Both the position numbers and the translations under genes were made by a program. A DNA stretch of 64,000 bases. Source: an uncultured Verrucomicrobiales bacterium. Lineage in GTDB: Bacteria; Verrucomicrobiota; Verrucomicrobiia; Verrucomicrobiales; Akkermansiaceae. Below are positions 12,488-24,550 of this stretch, piece after piece. The stretch is from NCBI GenBank assembly GCA_947039485.1, contig CAMQZC010000009.1:10974-74973 (forward strand), written 5' to 3'. Position 1 is the stretch's first letter, and every line of letters starts with the position of its first letter. The notes beneath the pieces are model-generated. The model did not search any database. It saw nothing but the letters and a program-made list of their open reading frames with translations, and had not been told where the DNA came from.

Positions 12488-13630
12488 ATGTCAGAACATC
12501 AGTCAGCATCTTCTCAATTAGAAAAAACAGACGCCAAGGAAGAACACCCTGATTTTCTCAGCAAGCAAATCATTACCTACCTTGGAAATAAACGCTCCCT
12601 GCTCAACTTCATCGGCAAAGCCGTCGAAGAAGTACAAGCACGCCTCGGCAAAGAAAAACTCATCACCCTAGACCTCTTTGCCGGCTCAGGAGTCGTCTCA
12701 AGATACCTCAAGAAATATTCTAAAAAATTATATTCAAATGATTTAGAATCCTACTCCGCCTACGTCAACGACTGCTACTTGACCAATTATTCCGAGCTAG
12801 ACATGGGATTGCTCAACGACATATCGCTAGAGTTAAAGGCGAACATCAACAAGCACGCACAACCCGGTTTTATCACAGAACTGTATGCGCCTAAAAACGA
12901 AAGCAGCATCACAGAGCAGGACCGCGTCTTCTACACGCGCCGCAACGCCATCTACATCGACACAGCGAGACAATTAATTGACAAGCTCCCCCTCGACCTG
13001 CAAAAATACTTCCTAGCCCCCCTCCTCTACAAGGCATCCGTGCATAACAACACATCAGGCATATTCAAGGGCTTCTATAAAAACAAAGAGCGAATTGGCC
13101 AATATGGAGGAGAAGGCAAGAACGCCCTAGCCCGAATAATGATGGACATCGACATCCCATTACCCATATTTTCGGCCTATGAATGCGAGACCATCGTGAT
13201 GCAAAAGGAATCGCTTGAAGCCGTAGAAAGCCTACCCGAGCTCGACTTATGCTATATGGATCCACCATACAACCAGCACCCCTATGGATCAAATTACTTC
13301 ATGCTCAATTTGATTTTAAACAACGAGCGGCCGCAGAAGCACTCTAAAGTATCAGGCATCCCCTGCGACTGGAACCGCTCCGCCTATAATAGGCCCAAAC
13401 TCGCCAAAGAAAAGCTATTCCAAGTCATCTCCGCCTGCCCCGCCAAGTTTATTTTAATCTCGTACAATTCGGAAGGCTTCATCAGCTATGATGAATTCAT
13501 TCATTTTTTGCAATCAATAGGCAGCGTAAAATCGCTACAAACAAATTACAACACCTTCAAAGGCAGCCGCAATTTGAGAGAGCGCAAACTTACCGTGACC
13601 GAATACCTCTTCCTTCTAGAAAAAAACTAG
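12488..13630 (+). CDS. N6-adenine DNA methyltransferase, alpha-type (Dam/FokI-like, D12 class), no cognate nuclease seen
   Basis: YLGNKRSLLNFI (Dam-like N-terminal motif), SAM motif I LDLFAGSGVVS, catalytic motif IV CYMDPPYNQHPYGSNYF, ILISYNSEGFI. The order motif I - long spacer - DPPY gives the alpha architecture. From memory it resembles the M.FokI halves. Confidence 0.85.
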   Translation: MSEHQSASSQLEKTDAKEEHPDFLSKQIITYLGNKRSLLNFIGKAVEEVQARLGKEKLITLDLFAGSGVVSRYLKKYSKKLYSNDLESYSAYVNDCYLTNYSELDMGLLNDISLELKANINKHAQPGFITELYAPKNESSITEQDRVFYTRRNAIYIDTARQLIDKLPLDLQKYFLAPLLYKASVHNNTSGIFKGFYKNKERIGQYGGEGKNALARIMMDIDIPLPIFSAYECETIVMQKESLEAVESLPELDLCYMDPPYNQHPYGSNYFMLNLILNNERPQKHSKVSGIPCDWNRSAYNRPKLAKEKLFQVISACPAKFILISYNSEGFISYDEFIHFLQSIGSVKSLQTNYNTFKGSRNLRERKLTVTEYLFLLEKN

Positions 13631-13832
13631 AAGCAAGAACCGCTGCTCAAGCAGCTCCGAAGCGTGCACTAGCGCAACCGCCAAATTCACCGCCTCGAAC
13701 AAGCTATCTATGTGAATAAGCAACACAACTCTACTTATTCTCAATACACTAACTATCGTCAACATACTTGACCTACGATAGCTCTAGATAACAAGCCATG
13801 CTTTTAGCTTGAACATCACTTGTGGATGAAGT

Positions 13833-15104
13833 ATGCTCTTTTTGTTCCCAACATACCCCATGGAGATAGAAGTCAAAGACGAAATATTAGAGCATATCAA
13901 GAGGCCCTCGCGTGCATTCCGCGGTGCTAGCTTAAGCGTGGAAGAATTATCAGAATTAACACACCAGCTTCATCATCAAGAATATCTCAGCATCTCTCAA
14001 TATACAGAAAGCGCAGCCAACACCCTTTACAAACTTCAGCGACTTGGTGAGAGTGTCGAGGATGTATTAAACTCCTTTAAACAACTTACGAAACAAGCCC
14101 CCTTCCAGCCCATCAGCTCACCTAAGTTCAGCTTCATCGACTTATTTGCTGGTATCGGTGGCTTCCGCATGGCCATGCAGCAACTAGGCGGCAAATGTGT
14201 CTTCTCATCCGAGTGGGATAAAGAAGCTCAGCGCACCTACTATGCTAACTACGGAGAAGTCCCCTATGGTGACATCACCAAGGATGAAACAAAGGCAGCA
14301 ATTCCTGACAACTTCGATGTACTCTGTGCAGGCTTCCCATGCCAAGCCTTCTCTATCGCAGGTAAGCGCGGAGGCTTTGATGATGTACGCGGCACATTGT
14401 TCTTTGATGTTGCTCAAATCATCAAAGACAAACGCCCAAAAGCCGTATTCCTTGAAAATGTTAAGGGACTGCTAAGCCATGACAAAGGACGCACCTTCCA
14501 AACCATTCTCCACACACTAAGAGAAGACCTCGGCTATACAGTCCCCGAGCCTCGTATCTTAAACGCTAAAAACTACGGCCTCCCTCAGAACAGAGAGCGC
14601 GTCTACATCGTCGCCTTCCGCAATGATATTGATGCCAGCAGCTTTAGCTACCCACTTCCCTCAAGCAAAGAGAAATGCTTTGCCGACGTCAAAGAGGAGA
14701 AGGTAGTATGCGCTCGCTACTACCTCTCAAATCAATACCTAAACACGCTAAAAGCCCACAAAGAAAGGCATGCGAGCAAAGGAAATGGCTTTGGTTACGA
14801 AATCATCCAAGACACTAGCTGCGCTAATGCCATCGTCGTAGGAGGTATGGGACGAGAGCGCAACCTTGTTATTGATCACCGCCTGACGGATTACACACCC
14901 AAAACCCGAATCAAAGGCGAGATTAACCGTGAAGGCATCCGCAAAATGACCCCACGAGAATGGGCTAGACTCCAAGGCTACCCTGATAATTTCCGAATCG
15001 TTGTCGCCGATGCCTCAGCCTACAAACAATTTGGCAACTCAGTCGCTGTACCAGCCATCAAAGCAACAGCACAACAGCTAATCAAAACACTCAACATCAA
15101 TTAA
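13833..15104 (+). CDS. DNA cytosine-5 methyltransferase, M.HpaII-like
   Basis: Motif I FSFIDLFAGIGGFRMA, motif IV CAGFPCQAFSIAGKRGG, motif VI FLENVKGL, motif VIII PQNRERVYIV, REWARLQGYPD, motif X QFGNSVAVP. From memory the overall sequence closely parallels M.HpaII (CCGG). The start could be M10 (13860). Confidence 0.92.
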   Translation: MLFLFPTYPMEIEVKDEILEHIKRPSRAFRGASLSVEELSELTHQLHHQEYLSISQYTESAANTLYKLQRLGESVEDVLNSFKQLTKQAPFQPISSPKFSFIDLFAGIGGFRMAMQQLGGKCVFSSEWDKEAQRTYYANYGEVPYGDITKDETKAAIPDNFDVLCAGFPCQAFSIAGKRGGFDDVRGTLFFDVAQIIKDKRPKAVFLENVKGLLSHDKGRTFQTILHTLREDLGYTVPEPRILNAKNYGLPQNRERVYIVAFRNDIDASSFSYPLPSSKEKCFADVKEEKVVCARYYLSNQYLNTLKAHKERHASKGNGFGYEIIQDTSCANAIVVGGMGRERNLVIDHRLTDYTPKTRIKGEINREGIRKMTPREWARLQGYPDNFRIVVADASAYKQFGNSVAVPAIKATAQQLIKTLNIN

Positions 15105-15107
15105 GCC

Positions 15108-16196
15108 ATGGCTATGAAAGGAAATAAAGGTGAATGGAGCGAAGTCTACACCCTCTTCAAGCTTCTAGGCGACAGAGAGCTACATTCTGGTGATGGGCAG
15201 CTCGAAAAGGTTGCCGATCTATTCTATCCCATTATTTCCATTCTCCGGCAGGAAAGCAGCGGAGAACAGCAGTACCATATCCAGAGTGAATCAATCCGTA
15301 TCACCAATGGAGACAAAGAAATCAACATCTCCATCAAGGATTTTCAAGAGAAAGCCAAAATACTCTTTGAGTCCATCAAAGCATCTCGTGGTAGCGCAAG
15401 CTTTGCCCTCCCAGAGATAGAAGCCTTCATGAGCTCAATCAACTGTGACAAACTCAAAGCAAGCTCAAAAGATAAAAGCGACATCCGCATCATCATCGAG
15501 GACATCCGCACAGGAGTAAACCCCACACTTGGCTTTAGTATCAAGTCCCAATTAGGTAGTGCCTCCACCCTATTCAACGCAAGCGGATCAACGAATGTAC
15601 TCTACAGCATCACAGGGGAGAAGCTATCTGCTGCTGATATCGAAGCCATCAACAGCATCAAGCCCAAAAAAGGACTGATCAAAGACCGCATCAGCGCCCT
15701 CAGGAACAAGGGTGCCGATATCTGCTTTCAAAGGATGGTATCACGCACATTCCACAACAACCTTGTTCTCATTGATAGCCTGATGCCACGCATCCTAGAT
15801 GAAATGATCAAACTCTACTACATCGAGGGCATCTCATCACTCAAAGACATCGTAAGTAAGCTAGAAGAAAGTAACCCACTCGCCTACGACATGGAGAATG
15901 GGCACCACTTCTACGAGTACAAAATTAAGCGCTTTCTCACAGACATAGCCCTAGGCATGACCCCTGCCAAGATTTGGAATGGTCACTATGATGTGACAGG
16001 CGGCTATCTTGTTGTCAAAGAGGATGGGGACATCCTCTGCTATCACATCTACAACAAAAACGACTTTGAGGACTACCTGCTCAATAACGTCAAATTCGAC
16101 ACACCAAGCACCAGCCGCCACGGCTTTGCCTCAATCGAGAATGACGGTGACGCAAACACATTCAAGCTCAATTTCCAGCTTAGATTCAAAGGATAA
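15108..16196 (+). CDS. Type II restriction endonuclease, HpaII family
   Basis: Starts 3 nt after the HpaII-like MTase stop. From memory, the N-terminus KGNKGEWSEVYTLFKLLGD matches the conserved start of the HpaII endonuclease family. Confidence 0.75.
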   Translation: MAMKGNKGEWSEVYTLFKLLGDRELHSGDGQLEKVADLFYPIISILRQESSGEQQYHIQSESIRITNGDKEINISIKDFQEKAKILFESIKASRGSASFALPEIEAFMSSINCDKLKASSKDKSDIRIIIEDIRTGVNPTLGFSIKSQLGSASTLFNASGSTNVLYSITGEKLSAADIEAINSIKPKKGLIKDRISALRNKGADICFQRMVSRTFHNNLVLIDSLMPRILDEMIKLYYIEGISSLKDIVSKLEESNPLAYDMENGHHFYEYKIKRFLTDIALGMTPAKIWNGHYDVTGGYLVVKEDGDILCYHIYNKNDFEDYLLNNVKFDTPSTSRHGFASIENDGDANTFKLNFQLRFKG

Positions 16197-16563: not shown

Positions 16564-17466
16564 TTACTTGTTAGATAATTTTCTTTTAGGGCATTCTTGA
16601 ATTTTCTTAAAAACTTTTCTAAACTCAATTAAAGTTTTCCTGAATTTCAAATTCTCTTTTTCATTGATTTCAGGCATCAAATGATGTGCAAGGTGATTAC
16701 GCCATTTAATCACCTCTTTTCCGTAACGCTCTAAAATATTTTCATAACATGACTCTGTACATGCGTGCTGCTGCTCACATTGTTTTAGTATTTTTTTATG
16801 TAATGCGTTTTTTCTTAACGTCGAGTTATAAACACTAGTACCACCTTTATCAATCAGACCCTGCAATTTCTCAACTTTATATTTTGATACATTTGTAAGA
16901 ACATCACTGGCTTGCTTCTGAATTGATCCAAGAATATATTTTATATGATCTCCTTCCTTTAGTATATCCCGTATAATTTCATCAAACTGAGCAACCTCCT
17001 GCATAGCTATACCTCGTAATGATGACATATCCATATCTCGCGTTAAGAAAAAATCAATCAAATCTTTGAAAGCTTCAGAACCCACCTCGAGGTCAGTCCG
17101 ATCAAAAAAATAGATACCATCACAATTATCCCCAAGATCACGTCTAGCTTTTTCTATATCGCTTGAGTAAAAGACAATATTCGTATAGATTTTTTTATCG
17201 GTTTTTGGATTGCGAATATTAGAAATTAAACCATTACCATTTTCGCTGAAGAGACTACTCAGATTGTAATCGACAACGAATAAATCATACATTGTATTCT
17301 TCTTTGTTAATTTTTCAAGTTCTGCATCAAGCGCATCTTGATTAATAGGTCTGACTATGTTAGAAGCAAAACCTTTATCTAGCATATGCTCCTCTATACA
17401 GGGAACATTAACAGTTAACCATGAATCATCGTCGTCTATCCATAATATATTGTAATCTAATTTCAT
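16564..17466 (-). CDS. Receiver (REC, CheY-like) domain protein with C-terminal HEPN-like Rx4H motif; putative effector of the island operon
   Basis: REC features: beta1 NILWIDDDD (D11-D14), DLFVVD66YNL (phospho-acceptor position), TNIVFYSS. C-terminal helical region with WRNHLAHH (R256-x4-H261, codons at 16684-16701) and a second RKNALH (218-223). Start overlaps the upstream gene's stop by 4 nt (ATGA). Confidence 0.6.
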   Translation of the reverse strand: MKLDYNILWIDDDDSWLTVNVPCIEEHMLDKGFASNIVRPINQDALDAELEKLTKKNTMYDLFVVDYNLSSLFSENGNGLISNIRNPKTDKKIYTNIVFYSSDIEKARRDLGDNCDGIYFFDRTDLEVGSEAFKDLIDFFLTRDMDMSSLRGIAMQEVAQFDEIIRDILKEGDHIKYILGSIQKQASDVLTNVSKYKVEKLQGLIDKGGTSVYNSTLRKNALHKKILKQCEQQHACTESCYENILERYGKEVIKWRNHLAHHLMPEINEKENLKFRKTLIEFRKVFKKIQECPKRKLSNK

Positions 17467-19856
17467 GATAAGTGCAGCTCTAAGGTGAATCCATTAGTAT
17501 AATTTGTAACAAGGACTTTCCCGTCTAATTTTTTCACAGTTTTTTCAACTTGATATAAACCCAGACCAGACCCCCTTGTTGTTGTCTCACCTTTTTCAAA
17601 AATCAAGTCAATACAATTTACATATCGCTCATTACTCACCCCATGCCCATCATCAGCGAATACAAACACCACACCGTCATTCTCTAGTCTATTCGAAATA
17701 GTTATATTACTTGCTTTGGCCTTCTTTGAATTTTCAATAATATTCTCCACCATCATCATGATTTCTAATGGAATGAAATCTATATTGATTGATAATCTGG
17801 TATCAATTTTATTGATTATCGAAATTCTTTTATTATATGTTAAATTTTTAATTTCAGCTATATATGCATCGATAAAGGTTCCAAGCTCACCGTTTATACG
17901 GTTTTGTTTATCAGTAAAATTATATAACGTAGCAAATTTCGCTATATTATAATTCTTCTGATTTGCCTCGCTAATAATCACAAGTAAATCTCGTATTTTA
18001 TCAGATATTTCGAGATCTTGTAGTGACCTAATAATACAAGTTTTGATTGTAGAATTATTAACTAATATCGAATGCATCGAAATTAGTAAATCGTCTATAT
18101 CCTGATTGGCGGTTTTCTTTAAAAAAGAATTAATACTATTAAGTTGCGCAACAGACCTCTCAGTTTCTTGAAGTTTTTTACTTTTCTTCTTTTCCGATTT
18201 TTCGGCGATCAATCGCTTATGGTCAGATTCCTGCTTAGCTTTTAATGCGTTCTCTGTCCTGTCTCGTTCTTTATTTATAATCTCAGCAACAGTACTCATT
18301 TCAGAATTTGTTAATTCCGATAAAGATTTACTACCTATTTTTTGAGAAAAATCATTTAAATAATCTCTATGTTTTTGATTAGCAACTTCTGAGATGTTTT
18401 TAATTGCATCAACGTTTAAATGAATTGTTTTAATCGACCAGTTAGATTTTAGTAACCTTTCTACAGTAATTTTTACTTTTTCGGACGAAATTTCTTTCAT
18501 CTTATACCTATCTGGATACTTTAACAAATCCTTTTCTGATATGACCTTTTTCGAATCAGGATCAATTAAATTCACAAACTTATTCCATTCTAGCGCTTCT
18601 ACTACGAATGTCTCTAACTGCCTTATAATATTTTCAATATAACCATAACTTTGATTTCTCTCACTTGCATGGCTAGCTTCTATACTAGCTTTATATTCTT
18701 TATCATGAGCAATTAACTCTCTAAATGCTGTATTATTAGCTAAGCCCTCGCGGTTTGACAAGACCTCGAAAACATCACCTTTATCGATAATGTCAACTCG
18801 ACCAAAAAGCTCGCGCGTACCCAGATAACGGGAACGACCTTGAGCCTTTCTTTGATCCCTACCCAACCAGTCATTATGGGGGTTTCCGTAAGGTGAGATT
18901 CTGAAGTTATTATAAAAAAGAAAAATAGAACCGTACTCAATAGCCCTGACTCCGATCGTTTTTGTAAAGTATGCCCTCGCAATAATATCCAAGTAGTGTA
19001 TCTCTGTTTTTACATTCTTCAGATTAGGGTATGGGTTCTTTACTTTGTACCTGTAAATTTCTGTACCTTGATAGAACAAAGAGGTATTTATATATGCTCC
19101 ATTTCCATCAATTGATGACTTTATATAAGTTGTTTTAAATGCTACTTTATCTAATATATTGTTATTAATTCGAGCGTTTAATTTTTTAATTAAATTTTTA
19201 TCTGTGTTATTAGAAAAAATTGTAATTGAAAATGTATCCTCTAAACTAGGTGAGAACTTTTCAAGCTCTGAAATTAACTGTTTTAGTTTATTTGTATCCC
19301 ACGCTTCTCTCAAGCGGTCAATTACAAGAACAGAACCAGTTGTCTTGAACGGAGAAACCTGATAAGAAGAAAGCTCAGCAATAAAATCACTTTCACTAAG
19401 CTCCACAAAATCCACCTGAATATCTTTCACCTCTTCATCAATTGCTCTATTTTCAAAAGAAGACCAATCAATGATTAATTTACAATAGTCGCCATTTGAT
19501 GATTTGGTATAGAGTGTAAGTGTAGCTCCAAGCCTATCACAGCTGAATCGTCCAACACCCTTATTTCCGGCATAAACCGTACCATCCTTGTTATTTAATT
19601 TCTCAGAATAAGCTATATTGAGCCATTTATTAACAATATCATCATAACACATGCCTTTACCGTTATCCGATATAATGATTTTCCCCTTAACAAGGTCATT
19701 CTCATCGATAAAGCGGATATTAGTATTGGTGGCAGCGGCATCCTTTGAATTTTTGATCAGCTCGATGATAGCTACATTATCACTATAAATTAGCTGCTTT
19801 CCTATAATGTTTTTAATAGAAGCGTTGACTTTAAATGCTAATTTCTTTTCATTCAT
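17463..19856 (-). CDS. 797-aa dual GHKL ATPase: N-terminal MORC/Hsp90/MutL-like module, coiled coil, C-terminal histidine-kinase-like transmitter
   Basis: N-terminal Bergerat fold: N box IELIKNSKDA (E32, N36, D39), G1 SDNGKGM, G2 GNKGVGRFS. Charged coiled coil at about aa 530-570. Candidate H box LISMH595SILVNN. C-terminal HATPase_c: N box VENIIENSKKA (N709), G1 ADDGHGV, G2 RGSGLGLYQV. No TM segments. Confidence 0.7.
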   Translation of the reverse strand: MNEKKLAFKVNASIKNIIGKQLIYSDNVAIIELIKNSKDAAATNTNIRFIDENDLVKGKIIISDNGKGMCYDDIVNKWLNIAYSEKLNNKDGTVYAGNKGVGRFSCDRLGATLTLYTKSSNGDYCKLIIDWSSFENRAIDEEVKDIQVDFVELSESDFIAELSSYQVSPFKTTGSVLVIDRLREAWDTNKLKQLISELEKFSPSLEDTFSITIFSNNTDKNLIKKLNARINNNILDKVAFKTTYIKSSIDGNGAYINTSLFYQGTEIYRYKVKNPYPNLKNVKTEIHYLDIIARAYFTKTIGVRAIEYGSIFLFYNNFRISPYGNPHNDWLGRDQRKAQGRSRYLGTRELFGRVDIIDKGDVFEVLSNREGLANNTAFRELIAHDKEYKASIEASHASERNQSYGYIENIIRQLETFVVEALEWNKFVNLIDPDSKKVISEKDLLKYPDRYKMKEISSEKVKITVERLLKSNWSIKTIHLNVDAIKNISEVANQKHRDYLNDFSQKIGSKSLSELTNSEMSTVAEIINKERDRTENALKAKQESDHKRLIAEKSEKKKSKKLQETERSVAQLNSINSFLKKTANQDIDDLLISMHSILVNNSTIKTCIIRSLQDLEISDKIRDLLVIISEANQKNYNIAKFATLYNFTDKQNRINGELGTFIDAYIAEIKNLTYNKRISIINKIDTRLSINIDFIPLEIMMMVENIIENSKKAKASNITISNRLENDGVVFVFADDGHGVSNERYVNCIDLIFEKGETTTRGSGLGLYQVEKTVKKLDGKVLVTNYTNGFTLELHLS

Positions 19857-19882
19857 GACGAATATTTCATATAGTTGTTCAA

Positions 19883-21097
19883 TTAGAGTAGTACCTTTAA
19901 AGCTAGACCTCCTTGCTCGGAGAACAATGGTGGGATAGCGTTGCCAATTTGGGTGTATCGAGGAACTTCCGATTTCCTAAGTATACCGCCTGTCGTATAT
20001 TTCCCCTTAAATTCAAAGCAATCAGGAAAGCCTTGTAACCTAGCATATTCTCGAACGGTTAAGATGCGTGGCTCGCAATAATGAATGAGATCATCAGGGT
20101 TTGTCGTTAGTGTTGGAGCTTGGCATTTACCCGAAAGAGGTACCAGCACCTGTTTCTTAATACCCAATTCCAGTTTAATCGCATTTGACAATTTAGCTCC
20201 GCCAATATCTCTTCGTTGAATCAGCTCAAACCTTTCTTTAATGCGTTCGGTATGCCTAGCAAAGCTATGACTATCAGGTATAGTCTCCTTATAACCTTTC
20301 CTAAGATAGCGCTGTAGAGCGGTCTGTGCTTTGTTATAGAGGCCACTTGAAAACGATTTCCTATCAGGGGTCTGTACGAGATTTGTAATCAGTAGATCTG
20401 ATATAGCATCAGAGACCGTAGGAGATACAGCAAGTTTGCGCTGCTGAAGAAACCCCTCCTTAATCTGATCTAAATTCTCAAAGAATTGATCCACTTTCTG
20501 CTGAGATGCACCTTCAGCCTCTCTATGCATACCCACAAGGATAAACCTAGTGCGCTTTTGAGGAACGCCATACTCACCGAAATTAATCAGTTTAGCGCAT
20601 ACGTAGTATCCAATTTTCTCAAGCTCGCTAATAGCAATATTAGAATATGCGCCCCCACCCTCCTGGTTATTTTTAAATTGCAGGGTAAAGCCTTTTACGT
20701 TCTCAAAAAAGACCAATTTAGGCTGCACCAAAGAAACAAACTGCACATAACTACGAAAGAGCTGATTTCGCACATCAGATTCCATACGCCTCCCTGCAAT
20801 AGAGAAGCCCTGACATGGGGGACCACCAGCGACTAAATCAATGGTTCCTTTCAACGATTTCAAGTCTTCTTCATGATCTCTAATAACATCAAGAATATCG
20901 TGATTCGTTTTAGGGAGCCATTCGGGCCAATCGAAATGATCAAGGCGGTTGCAAAGGTTATGCTCTAAGGTCTCAAAAGCATGAGGGCTTTTCTCAACAG
21001 CAAATACACCCTGCCATCCAGCCTGGCATAAACCCAATGATAGCCCTCCGCAACCAGCAAATATATCAATTACTCTCGGCTTGGGAATCTCATTCAT
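19883..21097 (-). CDS. DNA cytosine-5 methyltransferase (first gene of the AT-rich operon)
   Basis: Motif I VIDIFAGCGGLSLGL, motif IV GGPPCQGFSIAGRR, motif VI FFENVKGF, motif VIII PQKRTRFILVG, REYARLQGFPD, motif X QIGNAIPP. Confidence 0.92.
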   Translation of the reverse strand: MNEIPKPRVIDIFAGCGGLSLGLCQAGWQGVFAVEKSPHAFETLEHNLCNRLDHFDWPEWLPKTNHDILDVIRDHEEDLKSLKGTIDLVAGGPPCQGFSIAGRRMESDVRNQLFRSYVQFVSLVQPKLVFFENVKGFTLQFKNNQEGGGAYSNIAISELEKIGYYVCAKLINFGEYGVPQKRTRFILVGMHREAEGASQQKVDQFFENLDQIKEGFLQQRKLAVSPTVSDAISDLLITNLVQTPDRKSFSSGLYNKAQTALQRYLRKGYKETIPDSHSFARHTERIKERFELIQRRDIGGAKLSNAIKLELGIKKQVLVPLSGKCQAPTLTTNPDDLIHYCEPRILTVREYARLQGFPDCFEFKGKYTTGGILRKSEVPRYTQIGNAIPPLFSEQGGLALKVLL

Positions 21098-21511: not shown

Positions 21512-24500
21512 ATGGGCATAGTAGAGACAGCTGTAAAAATTGATTTTTTATCTTGGGATGATAGGGCTTGTGTTTTGGTGGCTAAGCGTTTGCTTGGTCT
21601 CGGAAATACCAATGCAGATTCTGATGCTGATGCGCCTGTGGTGGTGGTGACGCCGACTCGTGAGGCGGCGCGCTTGCTGCGCGAGCAGTTGGCGATTTTG
21701 GCGCCTCAGGCGGCTTTCTTGAGTCCGCGTATTATTCCGCTTTCGCAGCTTGAGATGCGCGATTCTCGCTGTGTTGGCTCGGGGGCGGAGTTGCTTCTTT
21801 GGCATCAGTGGCTCGCGGAGAGGGCTAAGGAGCTGGGGAATCTCTATCCTCATGGCTGGGAGTTTAAGTCTGAGAATTGGCTGCGTGAGGCGAAGCAGAC
21901 GGTTGATTTGCTCCATCGTCTGGCTAAGGAGGGGCTGGATGCTCATTCTGAGGGCTGGGCGCTGCTGGCGGAGTCTGATTCTCGCTGGGCTGAGTTGCGC
22001 GAGTTGCAGTTGCTCTGTCGTGAGCGTGTGCATGCGATGGGGCTATTGGATGCTACGGAGGCGCTGCGCTGCAGTGTGCCTGCTGGCTCGCGGATTATTC
22101 TTGCTTGTGTGCCTCAGCTGCCGCGCTCGCTGACGCTGATGTTGGAGGGCGCTGCTTGCTCTATTGATATTTGGGTGCATGCGCCTGCTAGCTATGCTAG
22201 TCGTTTTGATGCTTGGGGCTCTCCGACGGATGCGTGGCTCTCGCCATGCTCGGCTGAGGAGCTGGGGCTGGATCGTGATGACTGGCGTGAGCATTATTCT
22301 CAGGCTGCGGATTTGTGGCGGATGGCGGAGATGTCTTGCGCTCGCGCTGCGGCAATCAATGCGGTGAATCCTGTGCCTCATCAGCTGGCGCTGGCTATCT
22401 GTGATGCGGAGATGGAGCCTTGCATTGAGGAGGAGCTCTCGCATCATGGTGCGACGGTTTATTGTCCTCGCGGTTTGTCTTTTGTGAGCAGTTCTTGGCA
22501 TAAGTTGCTGCGTGAGTTGCTCTCGGTGATTGATGCTTTGGCTCTCTCTGGGCTGTCGCCTCAATCAGATGCGGCTCATTTCCCTGCTCCGGTGTTGATT
22601 CGCTTGATGAAGTGGCCTGCGATGCAGCGTTTCTTGCAGGCTGGGGGCGATGCTGGGACGTTACGGGATGTTGCCACGATGCTGGATGAGCTGCAGTTTA
22701 GCAATATTCCGGTGTTTGAGTCGAGTTTGCGGCTTTATCTCTCAAGGATGAAGGGGGGGGCTCTTTGTGCTAATCTGCTCAAGCGTCTTGTCAATGAGTT
22801 GCAGCAGGCTTTGCAAGGGCCTGTGCAATTGCTGCGTTGCTTGGAGCGTTGGATATTGGCGAGTGGGTCACAGGATGCTCAGCAGGCAAAGCTAGATGCG
22901 TTTTTCCTCCAGCAGGTTCAGCAGCTTATTCCTGTGCTCTCAGAGGGGGGATTCTCCTACGGTTGCCGCGATGTCTTGATTTTGCTCCAATTGATTTGTG
23001 AGTCTCACATGACGCCTGGGCTGCGCGATAGCGAGAGCTTGGACTTGCTGGGCTGGATGGAGCTCAGCTACAGCCCTGCGCGTGAGCTGGTGATTATTGG
23101 GATGCATAATGGTATTATTCCTGAGAATTGCTCGACGAGCGCTCTGCTGACTATCGCGACGATGAGTCAGCTAGACTTGCCCTCGGATGAGCAACGGGCA
23201 GCGCGTGATGCTTATTTGCTGCGCAGTATGATTGCGGGGCGCGGGATTGAGCGCTGTTATTTCTATTTTTCTCTCTTTGATGGGAAGCAGAATCCGCTCT
23301 CGCCTTCTTCTCTCTTGTTTAGGCTTTGCCCTGATTCACATTTGGCTAGCTTTGCCTCACATTTCTTTGATAATCAGGATAAGTTGCCTCGCAGCGCTGT
23401 CTTAAAGTCTGATGAGAGTGGCTGGCGACTCAAGTCGATTGGGCTGGGCGCTGGGGCTCAACTTGAGCTCAGCGAGCTTGCACAGCTGAGCTGTGAGCAG
23501 CTGGGGATTGAGAATCCTATGGCTGGGCGGCATTTCTCGCCTTCTTCTCTGCGTGAGTTCTTGCAGTGTCCGCTGCGATTCTGGCTGAGCAAGATTCATA
23601 GGCTGGATTCTAATGCTGTGGAGGAGGATAAGCAGAATCTTAATTCGCAGGAGTTGGGGAGTTTCCTACATACTGTGTTGGAGCAGTTCATCCGTCTCTA
23701 TCCGAGTCAAGCGGCGATTGTTACGGCGAGCAAGGAGGGGCTGATGGAGGAGGAGTTGCGCCGTCTCTTTGATGAGAGCTATGAGCGCGACTATGGCAAG
23801 AAGGCCTTGCTGCCTCAGCAGATTCAGCGTGAGGGGATGCTCAAGCGTCTGCTCGCCTATCTCTCCCTGCACCGCGAGCTCTGGCAGGATGGCTGGGAGT
23901 GTGCGACGGATCAGCAGGGTCAGTTGATGCTAGAGTATCAGGCAAGCTGGACGCTGGGCAAGCATACGCTAAAGATAATTATCGACCGTGTCGATCAGCG
24001 TCGGCGTGAGGATGGCTCCTATGAGTACCGCGTGTTGGACTACAAGACGGGTAATGTGGAGAGCTGCAGCAAGGAGCATCTCTGCGCGGTGAAGGATGTG
24101 GAGTTGATGGCGGGTTGTTTTGTCGATAAACTGCACCCTGTTTATATGCCCTTTGGCGTGAGTAAGGATAAGGCCTGCCGCTGGAAGAATCTACAGCTGC
24201 CTCTCTATGCGGCTTGGCTACGCGATCACTTTGCAAAGTCTACGATCAGTGTGGGCTACATCCATCTGGCGCGCAATTCTGAGGATGTGAAGCTGATGCT
24301 TTGGGAGTCGCCTGATGAGAAGCAGCCGCTCTTTGACCCGCTGGAGTCCGAGCTAAATGCGCCCGATACTGAGACGCTCATGGATAGTGCCCTCGCCTGT
24401 GCGCAGGACTGCATGGATCTGGTGAGTGAGGGTCGTTGCTTCGTCTCTGCGGAGCAGTTGAACTGGCCTATTGCACGAGATTACATCTTTAATGACCTCA

Positions 24501-24550
24501 TTGCCTTACAAGCTATTGACAAACTTTTTACCAACACAACATCTGTATGA
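21512..24550 (+). CDS. addB: AddB/RexB-like helicase-nuclease subunit (PD-(D/E)XK nuclease with probable Fe-S staple)
   Basis: 1012 aa. C-terminal RecB-type nuclease motifs IIIDRVDQ...YRVLDYKTG and LQLPLYAAWL. Four cysteines placed as in the AddB iron staple (FLQCPLRFW ... ALACAQDC...EGRC). Its stop overlaps the addA start (ATGA at 24547-24550). Confidence 0.8.
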   Translation: MGIVETAVKIDFLSWDDRACVLVAKRLLGLGNTNADSDADAPVVVVTPTREAARLLREQLAILAPQAAFLSPRIIPLSQLEMRDSRCVGSGAELLLWHQWLAERAKELGNLYPHGWEFKSENWLREAKQTVDLLHRLAKEGLDAHSEGWALLAESDSRWAELRELQLLCRERVHAMGLLDATEALRCSVPAGSRIILACVPQLPRSLTLMLEGAACSIDIWVHAPASYASRFDAWGSPTDAWLSPCSAEELGLDRDDWREHYSQAADLWRMAEMSCARAAAINAVNPVPHQLALAICDAEMEPCIEEELSHHGATVYCPRGLSFVSSSWHKLLRELLSVIDALALSGLSPQSDAAHFPAPVLIRLMKWPAMQRFLQAGGDAGTLRDVATMLDELQFSNIPVFESSLRLYLSRMKGGALCANLLKRLVNELQQALQGPVQLLRCLERWILASGSQDAQQAKLDAFFLQQVQQLIPVLSEGGFSYGCRDVLILLQLICESHMTPGLRDSESLDLLGWMELSYSPARELVIIGMHNGIIPENCSTSALLTIATMSQLDLPSDEQRAARDAYLLRSMIAGRGIERCYFYFSLFDGKQNPLSPSSLLFRLCPDSHLASFASHFFDNQDKLPRSAVLKSDESGWRLKSIGLGAGAQLELSELAQLSCEQLGIENPMAGRHFSPSSLREFLQCPLRFWLSKIHRLDSNAVEEDKQNLNSQELGSFLHTVLEQFIRLYPSQAAIVTASKEGLMEEELRRLFDESYERDYGKKALLPQQIQREGMLKRLLAYLSLHRELWQDGWECATDQQGQLMLEYQASWTLGKHTLKIIIDRVDQRRREDGSYEYRVLDYKTGNVESCSKEHLCAVKDVELMAGCFVDKLHPVYMPFGVSKDKACRWKNLQLPLYAAWLRDHFAKSTISVGYIHLARNSEDVKLMLWESPDEKQPLFDPLESELNAPDTETLMDSALACAQDCMDLVSEGRCFVSAEQLNWPIARDYIFNDLIALQAIDKLFTNTTSV

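Follow-up and report, generated by a model that had tools for sequence, protein, structure and literature searches.

The locus described here raises the question of whether a two-component receiver can be wired directly to a ribonuclease (RNase), and what such a protein might do beside a DNA methylase. It lies in a 64,000-nucleotide (nt) stretch of contig CAMQZC010000009.1, from an uncultured Verrucomicrobiales bacterium of the Akkermansiaceae; we call this whole stretch the window and give positions in its numbering. On the minus strand, 16564..17466 encodes a 300-residue protein that a sequence-only reading had taken for a CheY-like receiver (REC) fused to a putative HEPN RNase, with a kinase upstream, in effect a phosphorylation-gated toxin. 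We refer to this protein and its family as REC-HEPN. The kinase is indeed there: a histidine-kinase-like gene overlaps the REC-HEPN start codon, its stop and the ATG sharing the 4-nt sequence ATGA. Three elements of the context were absent from that reading, namely, a C5 cytosine methylase, a paraMORC-type ATPase on the kinase, and a published sister family (PMC8011034). In the analysis presented below, the notion of a receiver fused to a HEPN RNase and gated by phosphorylation emerges as plausible and partly supported.

The open reading frame was confirmed on the DNA, with 300 uninterrupted codons, and every residue that the sequence-only reading had named was recovered at its codon: D11 to D14 at 17436-17425, D66 at 17271-17269, and the serines S101 and S102 in the N-terminal half, and, within the sequence WRNHLAHH, R256 at 16701-16699 and H261 at 16686-16684. 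A word-indexed search returned 25 relatives, and a profile built from the first 24 was then used in a HMMER search of 1.84 billion cluster representatives, which retrieved 1,552 clusters at E ≤ 1e-3, of which 582 reached E ≤ 1e-30. Among the best 150 relatives, nearly all are 270 to 345 residues long and match from end to end, and their public labels are "hypothetical," "CheY-like," or generic response regulator. For the analysis of conservation, we aligned 164 diverged relatives, each a representative of a 50%-identity cluster; the residue counts given below for REC-HEPN refer to this alignment. D66, G77, R151, R256, and H261 are unchanged in all 164 sequences. These data confirm that the REC-HEPN observation is real and that its conservation is far above chance.

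Predicted fold, structural similarity, and conservation bore out the claim of a CheY-like receiver with an acceptor aspartate in the N-terminal half. A full-length AlphaFold2 model based on the 24-sequence alignment (predicted local distance difference test [pLDDT], 81.9; predicted template modeling score [pTM], 0.81) contains a (beta-alpha)5 unit at residues 4 to 144, in which the strands fall within residues 4 to 122 and the fifth helix spans residues 131 to 144; beyond this unit there are helices only. When the full-length model was submitted to Foldseek, the receiver half alone was matched, and the best PDB matches were receiver domains (3grc, 3ilh, SLN1-R1, and ComE REC), with a probability of 1.00 and target template modeling scores of 0.6 to 0.73. 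Together with Response_reg matches in the relatives, these results place the REC domain at residues 1 to 126 (17089..17466, minus strand). In the acidic pocket, position 11 is E in 87 relatives and D in 77, and position 12 is D in 144 and N in 20; the predicted phospho-acceptor, D66 (codon 17269..17271, minus strand), is invariant. The serine pair had been described as placed as in known receivers, which holds for position 101, where all 164 relatives have S (153) or T (11), but not for S102, which is not conserved. That the usual beta5 lysine is replaced proved to be a family trait rather than a peculiarity of the window protein (R123 in FFDRTD), with R in 153 relatives and K in 11, a conservative swap that keeps the positive charge. 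The Pfam model Response_reg finds no match in the window protein at E ≤ 1; in single-sequence scans, it matches 128 of the 150 best relatives at E < 0.1, and with the family consensus it scores 39.2 bits against its curated cutoff of 30.2. The modeled fold and the profile matches agree on a divergent but complete CheY-like receiver, acceptor aspartate included, in the N-terminal half.

The C-terminal half (residues 145 to 292; 16591..17034, minus strand) bears the burden of the RNase proposal. The AlphaFold2 model agrees with the sequence-only reading that the last 150 residues are helical. The full-length model and a separate model of the domain (pLDDT, 85.9) both contain long helices at residues 148 to 171, 175 to 189, 238 to 261, and 269 to 291, with extra helices inserted between the second and the third. 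The candidate HEPN catalytic motif, RNHLAH (R256 to H261; 16684..16701, minus strand), closes the penultimate long helix and is followed in both models by a loop at residues 262 to 268 and then by the last helix. Anantharaman et al. (2013; PMC3710099) described both the position of the HEPN motif at a helix end and the occurrence of inserts between helices 2 and 3, and the placement of RNxLAH and the helical insert in REC-HEPN fit that description. Examination of the homologs for R256 and H261, the check proposed along with the original claim, showed each of them in 164 of 164 sequences, with N257 in 163, A260 in 155, and L259 in 150. A second constant element is the R151-G152 pair (17011..17016, minus strand) at the start of the first helix of the domain, where R151 is invariant and G152 is present in all relatives except one (163/164). 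Since R, N, and H are unchanged in the exact RNxxxH spacing, the conservation pattern suggests catalysis rather than a binding surface. Taken alone, the motif is weak evidence: from the composition of REC-HEPN itself, 0.02 RNxxxH and 0.32 plain Rx4H matches are expected per protein. The RKNALH sequence at residues 218 to 223, to which the sequence-only reading had also drawn attention, is present but not conserved, its H223 column containing K, R, N, Q, or C; we rejected it as a catalytic motif and regard it as a chance match.

Profile comparisons connect the same region to HEPN families. When the 150 relatives were scanned singly with Pfam, 31 sub-threshold HEPN matches were obtained (RiboL-PSP, 10; MAE_28990, 8; Swt1, 7; Apea, 5; Abi_2, 1), and outside the REC and HEPN families nothing recurred more than twice. 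The family consensus of the C-terminal domain matched HEPN_RiboL-PSP over 152 of 183 residues with an E value of 4e-5 and a score of 24.0 bits, below the cutoff of 28.4; consensus sequences of sub-clades gave weaker HEPN matches than that of the whole family, and the best HEPN match of the window protein itself reached only E = 0.18. A profile of the C-terminal domain was also searched against a set of 5.8 billion proteins, and the 120 best matches were all receiver-fused proteins of about 300 residues, with no other architecture and no annotated HEPN relative among them. An hhalign comparison of the C-terminal alignment with the single E. coli RnlA sequence gave no match, which is uninformative, as RnlA is a divergent HEPN protein. 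No helix-turn-helix (HTH) or other DNA-binding domain was detected in Pfam scans of the window protein and the 150 relatives. From the conserved motif, its position in the models, and the consensus match, we consider the C-terminal half to be probably a HEPN RNase.

Two further observations concern the REC-HEPN proteins. Cysteines C230, C236, and C240 (CEQQHACTESCY) and C292 (QECPKRK) cluster in residues 230 to 292 of the window protein (16591-16779). The cluster is common to the closest homologs (P0002, P0003, P0011, and P0016) and is not conserved in the wider family; it could bind a metal or form a disulfide close to the putative active site. A 415-residue relative, P0025, has an N6_N4 methylase Pfam match, and its residues 146 to 246 are 37% identical to residues 59 to 167 of REC-HEPN; it could be a genuine fusion of methylase and receiver or else an artifact of gene calling or assembly on a 2.3-kb contig.

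If the receiver is to be phosphorylated, the candidate donor is the presumably soluble, kinase-like protein of 797 residues encoded directly upstream (17463..19856, minus strand). It consists of a GHKL ATPase domain of the paraMORC/MutL type, a variable middle, a DHp-like helix with an invariant histidine, and a HATPase_c domain. Pfam matched HATPase_c_3 at residues 24 to 152 (E = 4e-25) and HATPase_c at residues 698 to 796 (E = 2e-14). Against PDB sequences, the C terminus resembles QseC, EnvZ, CpxA, and PhoQ, and the N terminus resembles PMS2 and MORC2; neither Pfam nor the PDB sequence matches detected a tetratricopeptide repeat (TPR) at the N terminus. In the N-terminal GHKL domain (19401..19787, minus strand), a candidate sensor, the Bergerat motifs are kept in 28 to 32 of 32 homologs (E32, N36, D39, D64xGxG68, G97xKGxG102, and T175), and an S5-like block, K337/Q339/G340, is also conserved. 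The boxes of the C-terminal catalytic (CA) domain (17469..17765, minus strand) are conserved in the same set: N box N705/N709, G1 D735xG737, F753, and G2 G762xGxG766. Between the two ATPase domains, H595 (in LISMHSILV; codon 18072..18074, minus strand, checked on the DNA) is the only histidine present in all 32 homologs, and it is the predicted site of autophosphorylation. Alignment thus shows that kinase and receiver keep all the residues for His-to-Asp phosphotransfer. From the S5-like block to H595 (residues ~382 to 594), there are almost no conserved positions, only L414; this region may be a candidate specificity or reader domain, perhaps one that covaries with the target recognition domain of the methylase. 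The kinase gene also contains a 37-nt imperfect direct repeat of 70% identity (17698-17734 and 19717-19753), whose copies fall in the N-box coding sequence of each GHKL domain (residues 34 to 47, ELIKNSKDAAA, and residues 707 to 720). The repeat may be a trace of GHKL-domain paralogy or may reflect convergence in the codons used for the NSK-A motif that both domains contain.

The first gene of the operon, 26 nt from the kinase gene, encodes a C5 cytosine DNA methyltransferase of 404 residues (19883..21097, minus strand; Pfam DNA_methylase, E = 9e-57; NCBIfam dcm), the proposed self-marking component. We examined the constancy of this arrangement in 36 nonredundant loci from metagenomes and one-genome-per-species contigs, which cover Bacteroidota, Firmicutes, Alpha-, Beta-, and Gammaproteobacteria, Acidobacteria, Melainabacteria, Kiritimatiellia, Chlorobiota, and Planctomycetes. 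The kinase gene is directly upstream of that for REC-HEPN in 34 of 35 loci, and an orthologous C5 methylase (E values from 1e-60 to 1e-155) is present in 31 of the 36, its gene lying either upstream in the same orientation or directly downstream in convergent orientation. Vsr joins the cassette in 6 loci; besides Dcm and Vsr, no further conserved gene accompanies the kinase/receiver pair in these loci. The cleanest example of the cassette as an autonomous insertion is L051 (4415-9315), where Dcm, kinase, REC-HEPN, and Vsr form a bare insertion between thiC and bacA on a 658-kb contig. In the window, the triad of methylase, kinase, and REC-HEPN genes has a GC content of 31 to 34% versus 55 to 60% for the host, and its neighbors are an HpaII-type restriction-modification (R-M) pair and a D12-class methylase. 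Those relatives that are closest to the window protein, at about 40% identity, are found in the early region of prophages, and 6 IMG/VR contigs carry REC-HEPN relatives; no match was obtained with tblastn in the phage collection of GenBank or among the plasmids of PLSDB. Dcm, kinase, and REC-HEPN together constitute a conserved mobile unit that occurs in many phyla and on prophages.

In the prophage loci L001 to L007, a gene for a 146-residue HAD/PNKP-like phosphatase (8849-9289 in L001) overlaps the REC-HEPN stop codon and is followed by genes for an S-adenosylmethionine (SAM) synthetase and a ParB-fused N6/N4 methylase. The phosphatase gene has no counterpart in the window; its product could act as a buffer by dephosphorylating phospho-Asp, or it could heal RNA 3' ends.

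The association of kinase, receiver, and methylase is already known from a sister family. Bellieny-Rabelo et al. (2021; PMC8011034) reported kinases with HATPase_c_3, HEF_HK, and HATPase_c domains that adjoin Response_reg_2 proteins and are enriched near C5 methylases and R-M genes; HEPN is never mentioned there, and the rest of the receiver protein is given no function. The published kinases, which are soluble, share with the cassette the HATPase_c_3 domain, the DHp-like helix with a core histidine, the HATPase_c domain, the adjacent receiver-like gene, and the strong tie to C5 DNA methylases and R-M islands. Unlike them, the window proteins match neither of the Pfam models HEF_HK and Response_reg_2 (PF19191 and PF19192; no hit at E ≤ 1); PF19192 matched 4 of the 150 relatives at E < 0.1 and, separately, two genome homologs, with a best score of 22.2 bits against a cutoff of 27. 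A beta5 lysine is reported for the published receivers (PMC8011034), whereas the REC-HEPN family has arginine. The DefensePredictor tables list "response regulator receiver domain" proteins of E. coli, Xenorhabdus, and other bacteria with 543 to 615 residues and a different C-terminal region, presumed members of the HEF_HK/Response_reg_2 family, in contrast to REC-HEPN with its ~300 residues and invariant RNxLAH. In that work, the E. coli sister operons scored very high for defense. By sequence comparison, the REC-HEPN family is a sister branch of the HEF_HK/Response_reg_2 pairs with a different, shorter output.

A functional precedent is provided by Detocs, in which the TPR kinase DtcA, the stand-alone buffer receiver DtcB, and the receiver-effector DtcC are all required for detection, and both the kinase histidine and the acceptor aspartate are needed for defense (Rousset et al., 10.1101/2023.01.24.525353). 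Among Detocs effectors, 80% are PNP, and the remainder have endonuclease or transmembrane domains. Detocs establishes that a kinase-to-receiver-effector relay can be an abortive infection defense, and its His-to-Asp relay to a receiver fused with a cell-arresting enzyme has its counterpart in the cassette, as a resemblance of architecture only. The sequence-only reading had compared the locus with Detocs; this comparison holds as an analogy only, and the Detocs frame itself does not fit, since the cassette has no DtcB (there is no stand-alone receiver open reading frame between 16196 and 21500) and no TPR sensor, would have a putative RNase in place of the PNP ATP nucleosidase, and includes a methylase as an integral third gene.

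We lean toward a model, built on sequence and on analogy, in which the cassette acts in the manner of an R-M or addiction module but restricts through a phosphorelay that terminates in an RNase. In this model, the C5 methylase would mark host DNA. Vsr is a DNA T:G mismatch endonuclease that repairs deaminated 5-methylcytosine and is needed only where DNA contains this base; because of the Vsr linkage, DNA rather than RNA would be the substrate of the methylase. Detection of unmethylated DNA, either foreign or arising after loss of the cassette, or of another cue of infection could fall to the GHKL module at the N terminus of the kinase and to its variable middle. The kinase would then autophosphorylate at H595 and pass the phosphate to D66, and the phosphorylated receiver would dimerize, joining two HEPN domains as an active RNase. 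Cleavage of RNA would arrest the cell, as abortive infection or postsegregational killing. The complete chain, from DNA cytosine methylation read by a MORC-like ATPase-histidine kinase, through a His-Asp relay, to a receiver-gated HEPN RNase that executes on RNA, is put forward as a tentative proposal.

Several results weigh against this model. All HEPN matches in Pfam, whether for the window protein, the 150 relatives, or the consensus, lie below their gathering scores. Foldseek comparison of the C-terminal model with PDB and BFVD gave no match at E < 0.1, and the matches listed, which include no HEPN entry, are weak coiled-coil or designed bundles; all-helical domains with inserts are hard targets for Foldseek. 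A search of PDB sequences with the C-terminal alignment profile returned nothing relevant, and no PADLOC or NCBIfam defense model matched the window proteins or the family consensus sequences. The E. coli sister operons that were cloned (a 607-residue receiver protein plus its kinase) have no validated-system number in DefensePredictor; unlike the cassette, those constructs comprise two genes with no methylase among them and encode a different output domain. For a family known here through sequences and models, we infer both toxicity and phosphorylation gating, as well as the cue that the kinase senses and the sign of the effect of phosphorylation. The RNase assignment made by the sequence-only reading accordingly keeps the invariant RNxLAH, its HEPN-type position, and the recurrent similarity to HEPN families in Pfam, but gains no structural match and no match above threshold.

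The main rival is a non-catalytic output. In this alternative, the C-terminal domain would be a regulatory or protein-binding module, and the locus would be a conventional cytoplasmic two-component system with, for example, the expression or activity of the methylase or a DNA repair response to methylation state under its control. The lack of a HEPN structural match and of above-threshold profile matches described above speaks for this alternative; moreover, the sister family was published as a signaling system without an assigned output function (PMC8011034), and modules of the MutL/MORC type have functions in repair and in the manipulation of DNA (PMC2292703). However, a binding module would not readily account for R, N, and H being invariant at the exact RNxxxH spacing, and the DNA-binding domain of a conventional regulator was not detected. 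The distribution of the cassette, which is laterally mobile and found in R-M islets, in prophages, and sometimes as a bare four-gene insertion, is also atypical of a housekeeping regulator. We regard this alternative as rather unlikely and prefer the RNase.

Given a HEPN RNase, phosphorylation could act with the opposite sign. Constitutive phosphorylation of the receiver by the kinase would then hold the RNase inactive until infection or cassette loss ended the signaling and freed the toxin, as in toxin-antitoxin (TA) systems. The tight translational coupling of the genes is compatible with such an arrangement, and many HEPN toxins are restrained by a partner encoded next to them (PMC3710099). 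In Detocs, however, mutation of the kinase histidine or of the acceptor aspartate abolishes defense rather than causing toxicity, and we think it unlikely that the relay restrains the RNase; activation by phosphorylation remains our preferred reading.

Two other explanations are far less probable. The locus could be a Detocs system in which a HEPN payload replaces the PNP ATP nucleosidase; the logic of a kinase and a receiver fused to a non-DNA-binding effector is the same and Detocs effectors are modular, but three genes including stand-alone DtcB are required there, whereas the cassette adds only Dcm and Vsr in the 36 loci, and its kinase begins with HATPase_c_3 where DtcA has TPR and matched no PADLOC model, so that we give this very little weight. 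An RNA-level R-M system, in which the C5 methylase would modify host RNA in the manner of Dnmt2 and the HEPN RNase would cut unmodified RNA, would suit an effector that is a putative RNase and a sole self-marking enzyme that is a C5 methylase, yet it is highly improbable in view of the strong matches of the methylase to DNA C5-methylase and type II methyltransferase models, the presence of Vsr in 6 loci, and the MutL/MORC-type DNA-associated ATPase of the kinase.

The DNA-marking cassette that we favor resembles type II Dcm-Vsr-restriction endonuclease cassettes in being compact and mobile, with a C5 methylase core and sometimes Vsr, and in its location between housekeeping genes or in R-M islets; it differs in that the kinase and REC-HEPN take the place of the restriction endonuclease. 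No cognate DNA endonuclease was found in the cassette, nor any nuclease fold besides the putative HEPN domain. With the HEPN RNases of abortive infection (Abi), TA, and R-M systems (PMC3710099), including RiboL-PSP-, MAE_28990-, and Swt1-like proteins, REC-HEPN shares an Rx4H motif with Asn after Arg, its location at the end of helix 3, the inserts, and the linkage to R-M; fusion to a receiver and control by a histidine kinase are not part of that survey, in which "histidine kinase" has 0 occurrences and a receiver appears solely in an unrelated transmembrane-domain context. Neither a kinase-fused paraMORC nor a receiver-HEPN fusion is described in the 2013 survey or in the 2008 paraMORC paper (PMC2292703), and full-text literature searches for such a fusion gave no result. 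Two things appear to be new, namely, an output of HEPN type and the interpretation of the triad as a phosphorelay that is guarded by methylation and leads to an RNase.

If this reading is correct, the family, with about 1,500 clusters at 50% identity in many phyla and with prophage copies, would represent a large unrecognized defense family and extend defensive two-component systems beyond Detocs. It would join epigenetic self-marking, a MutL/MORC-type DNA-associated ATPase, and two-component phosphotransfer, which to our knowledge have not been known to work together, and it would end in an RNase instead of a DNase. Prokaryotic paraMORC ATPases would gain a testable role as sensors. The model would also account for the linkage of a very common "hypothetical" or "CheY-like" protein family to Dcm methylases that look like orphans; in genomes as well as in prophages, many dcm genes regarded as orphans may be parts of cassettes like this one. 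An RNase that can be switched by phosphorylation could, in addition, serve as a tool.

The surroundings of the triad in the window bear on how it arrived there. A search for island-flanking repeats found none, and a scan for promoters and terminators did no better than on shuffled sequences. The adjoining islet consists of a D12-class N6-adenine methylase without a partner endonuclease (12488-13630, plus strand), an HpaII-type methylase (13833-15104), and the HpaII-type endonuclease that pairs with it (15108-16196). The GC content of the islet (12488-16196) is 44 to 48%, compared with 31 to 34% for the triad (16564-21097). This contrast suggests that islet and triad are two separate acquisitions, both flanked by a gene for a GT8 glycosyltransferase on one side and an addB-like gene (21512-24550) on the other.

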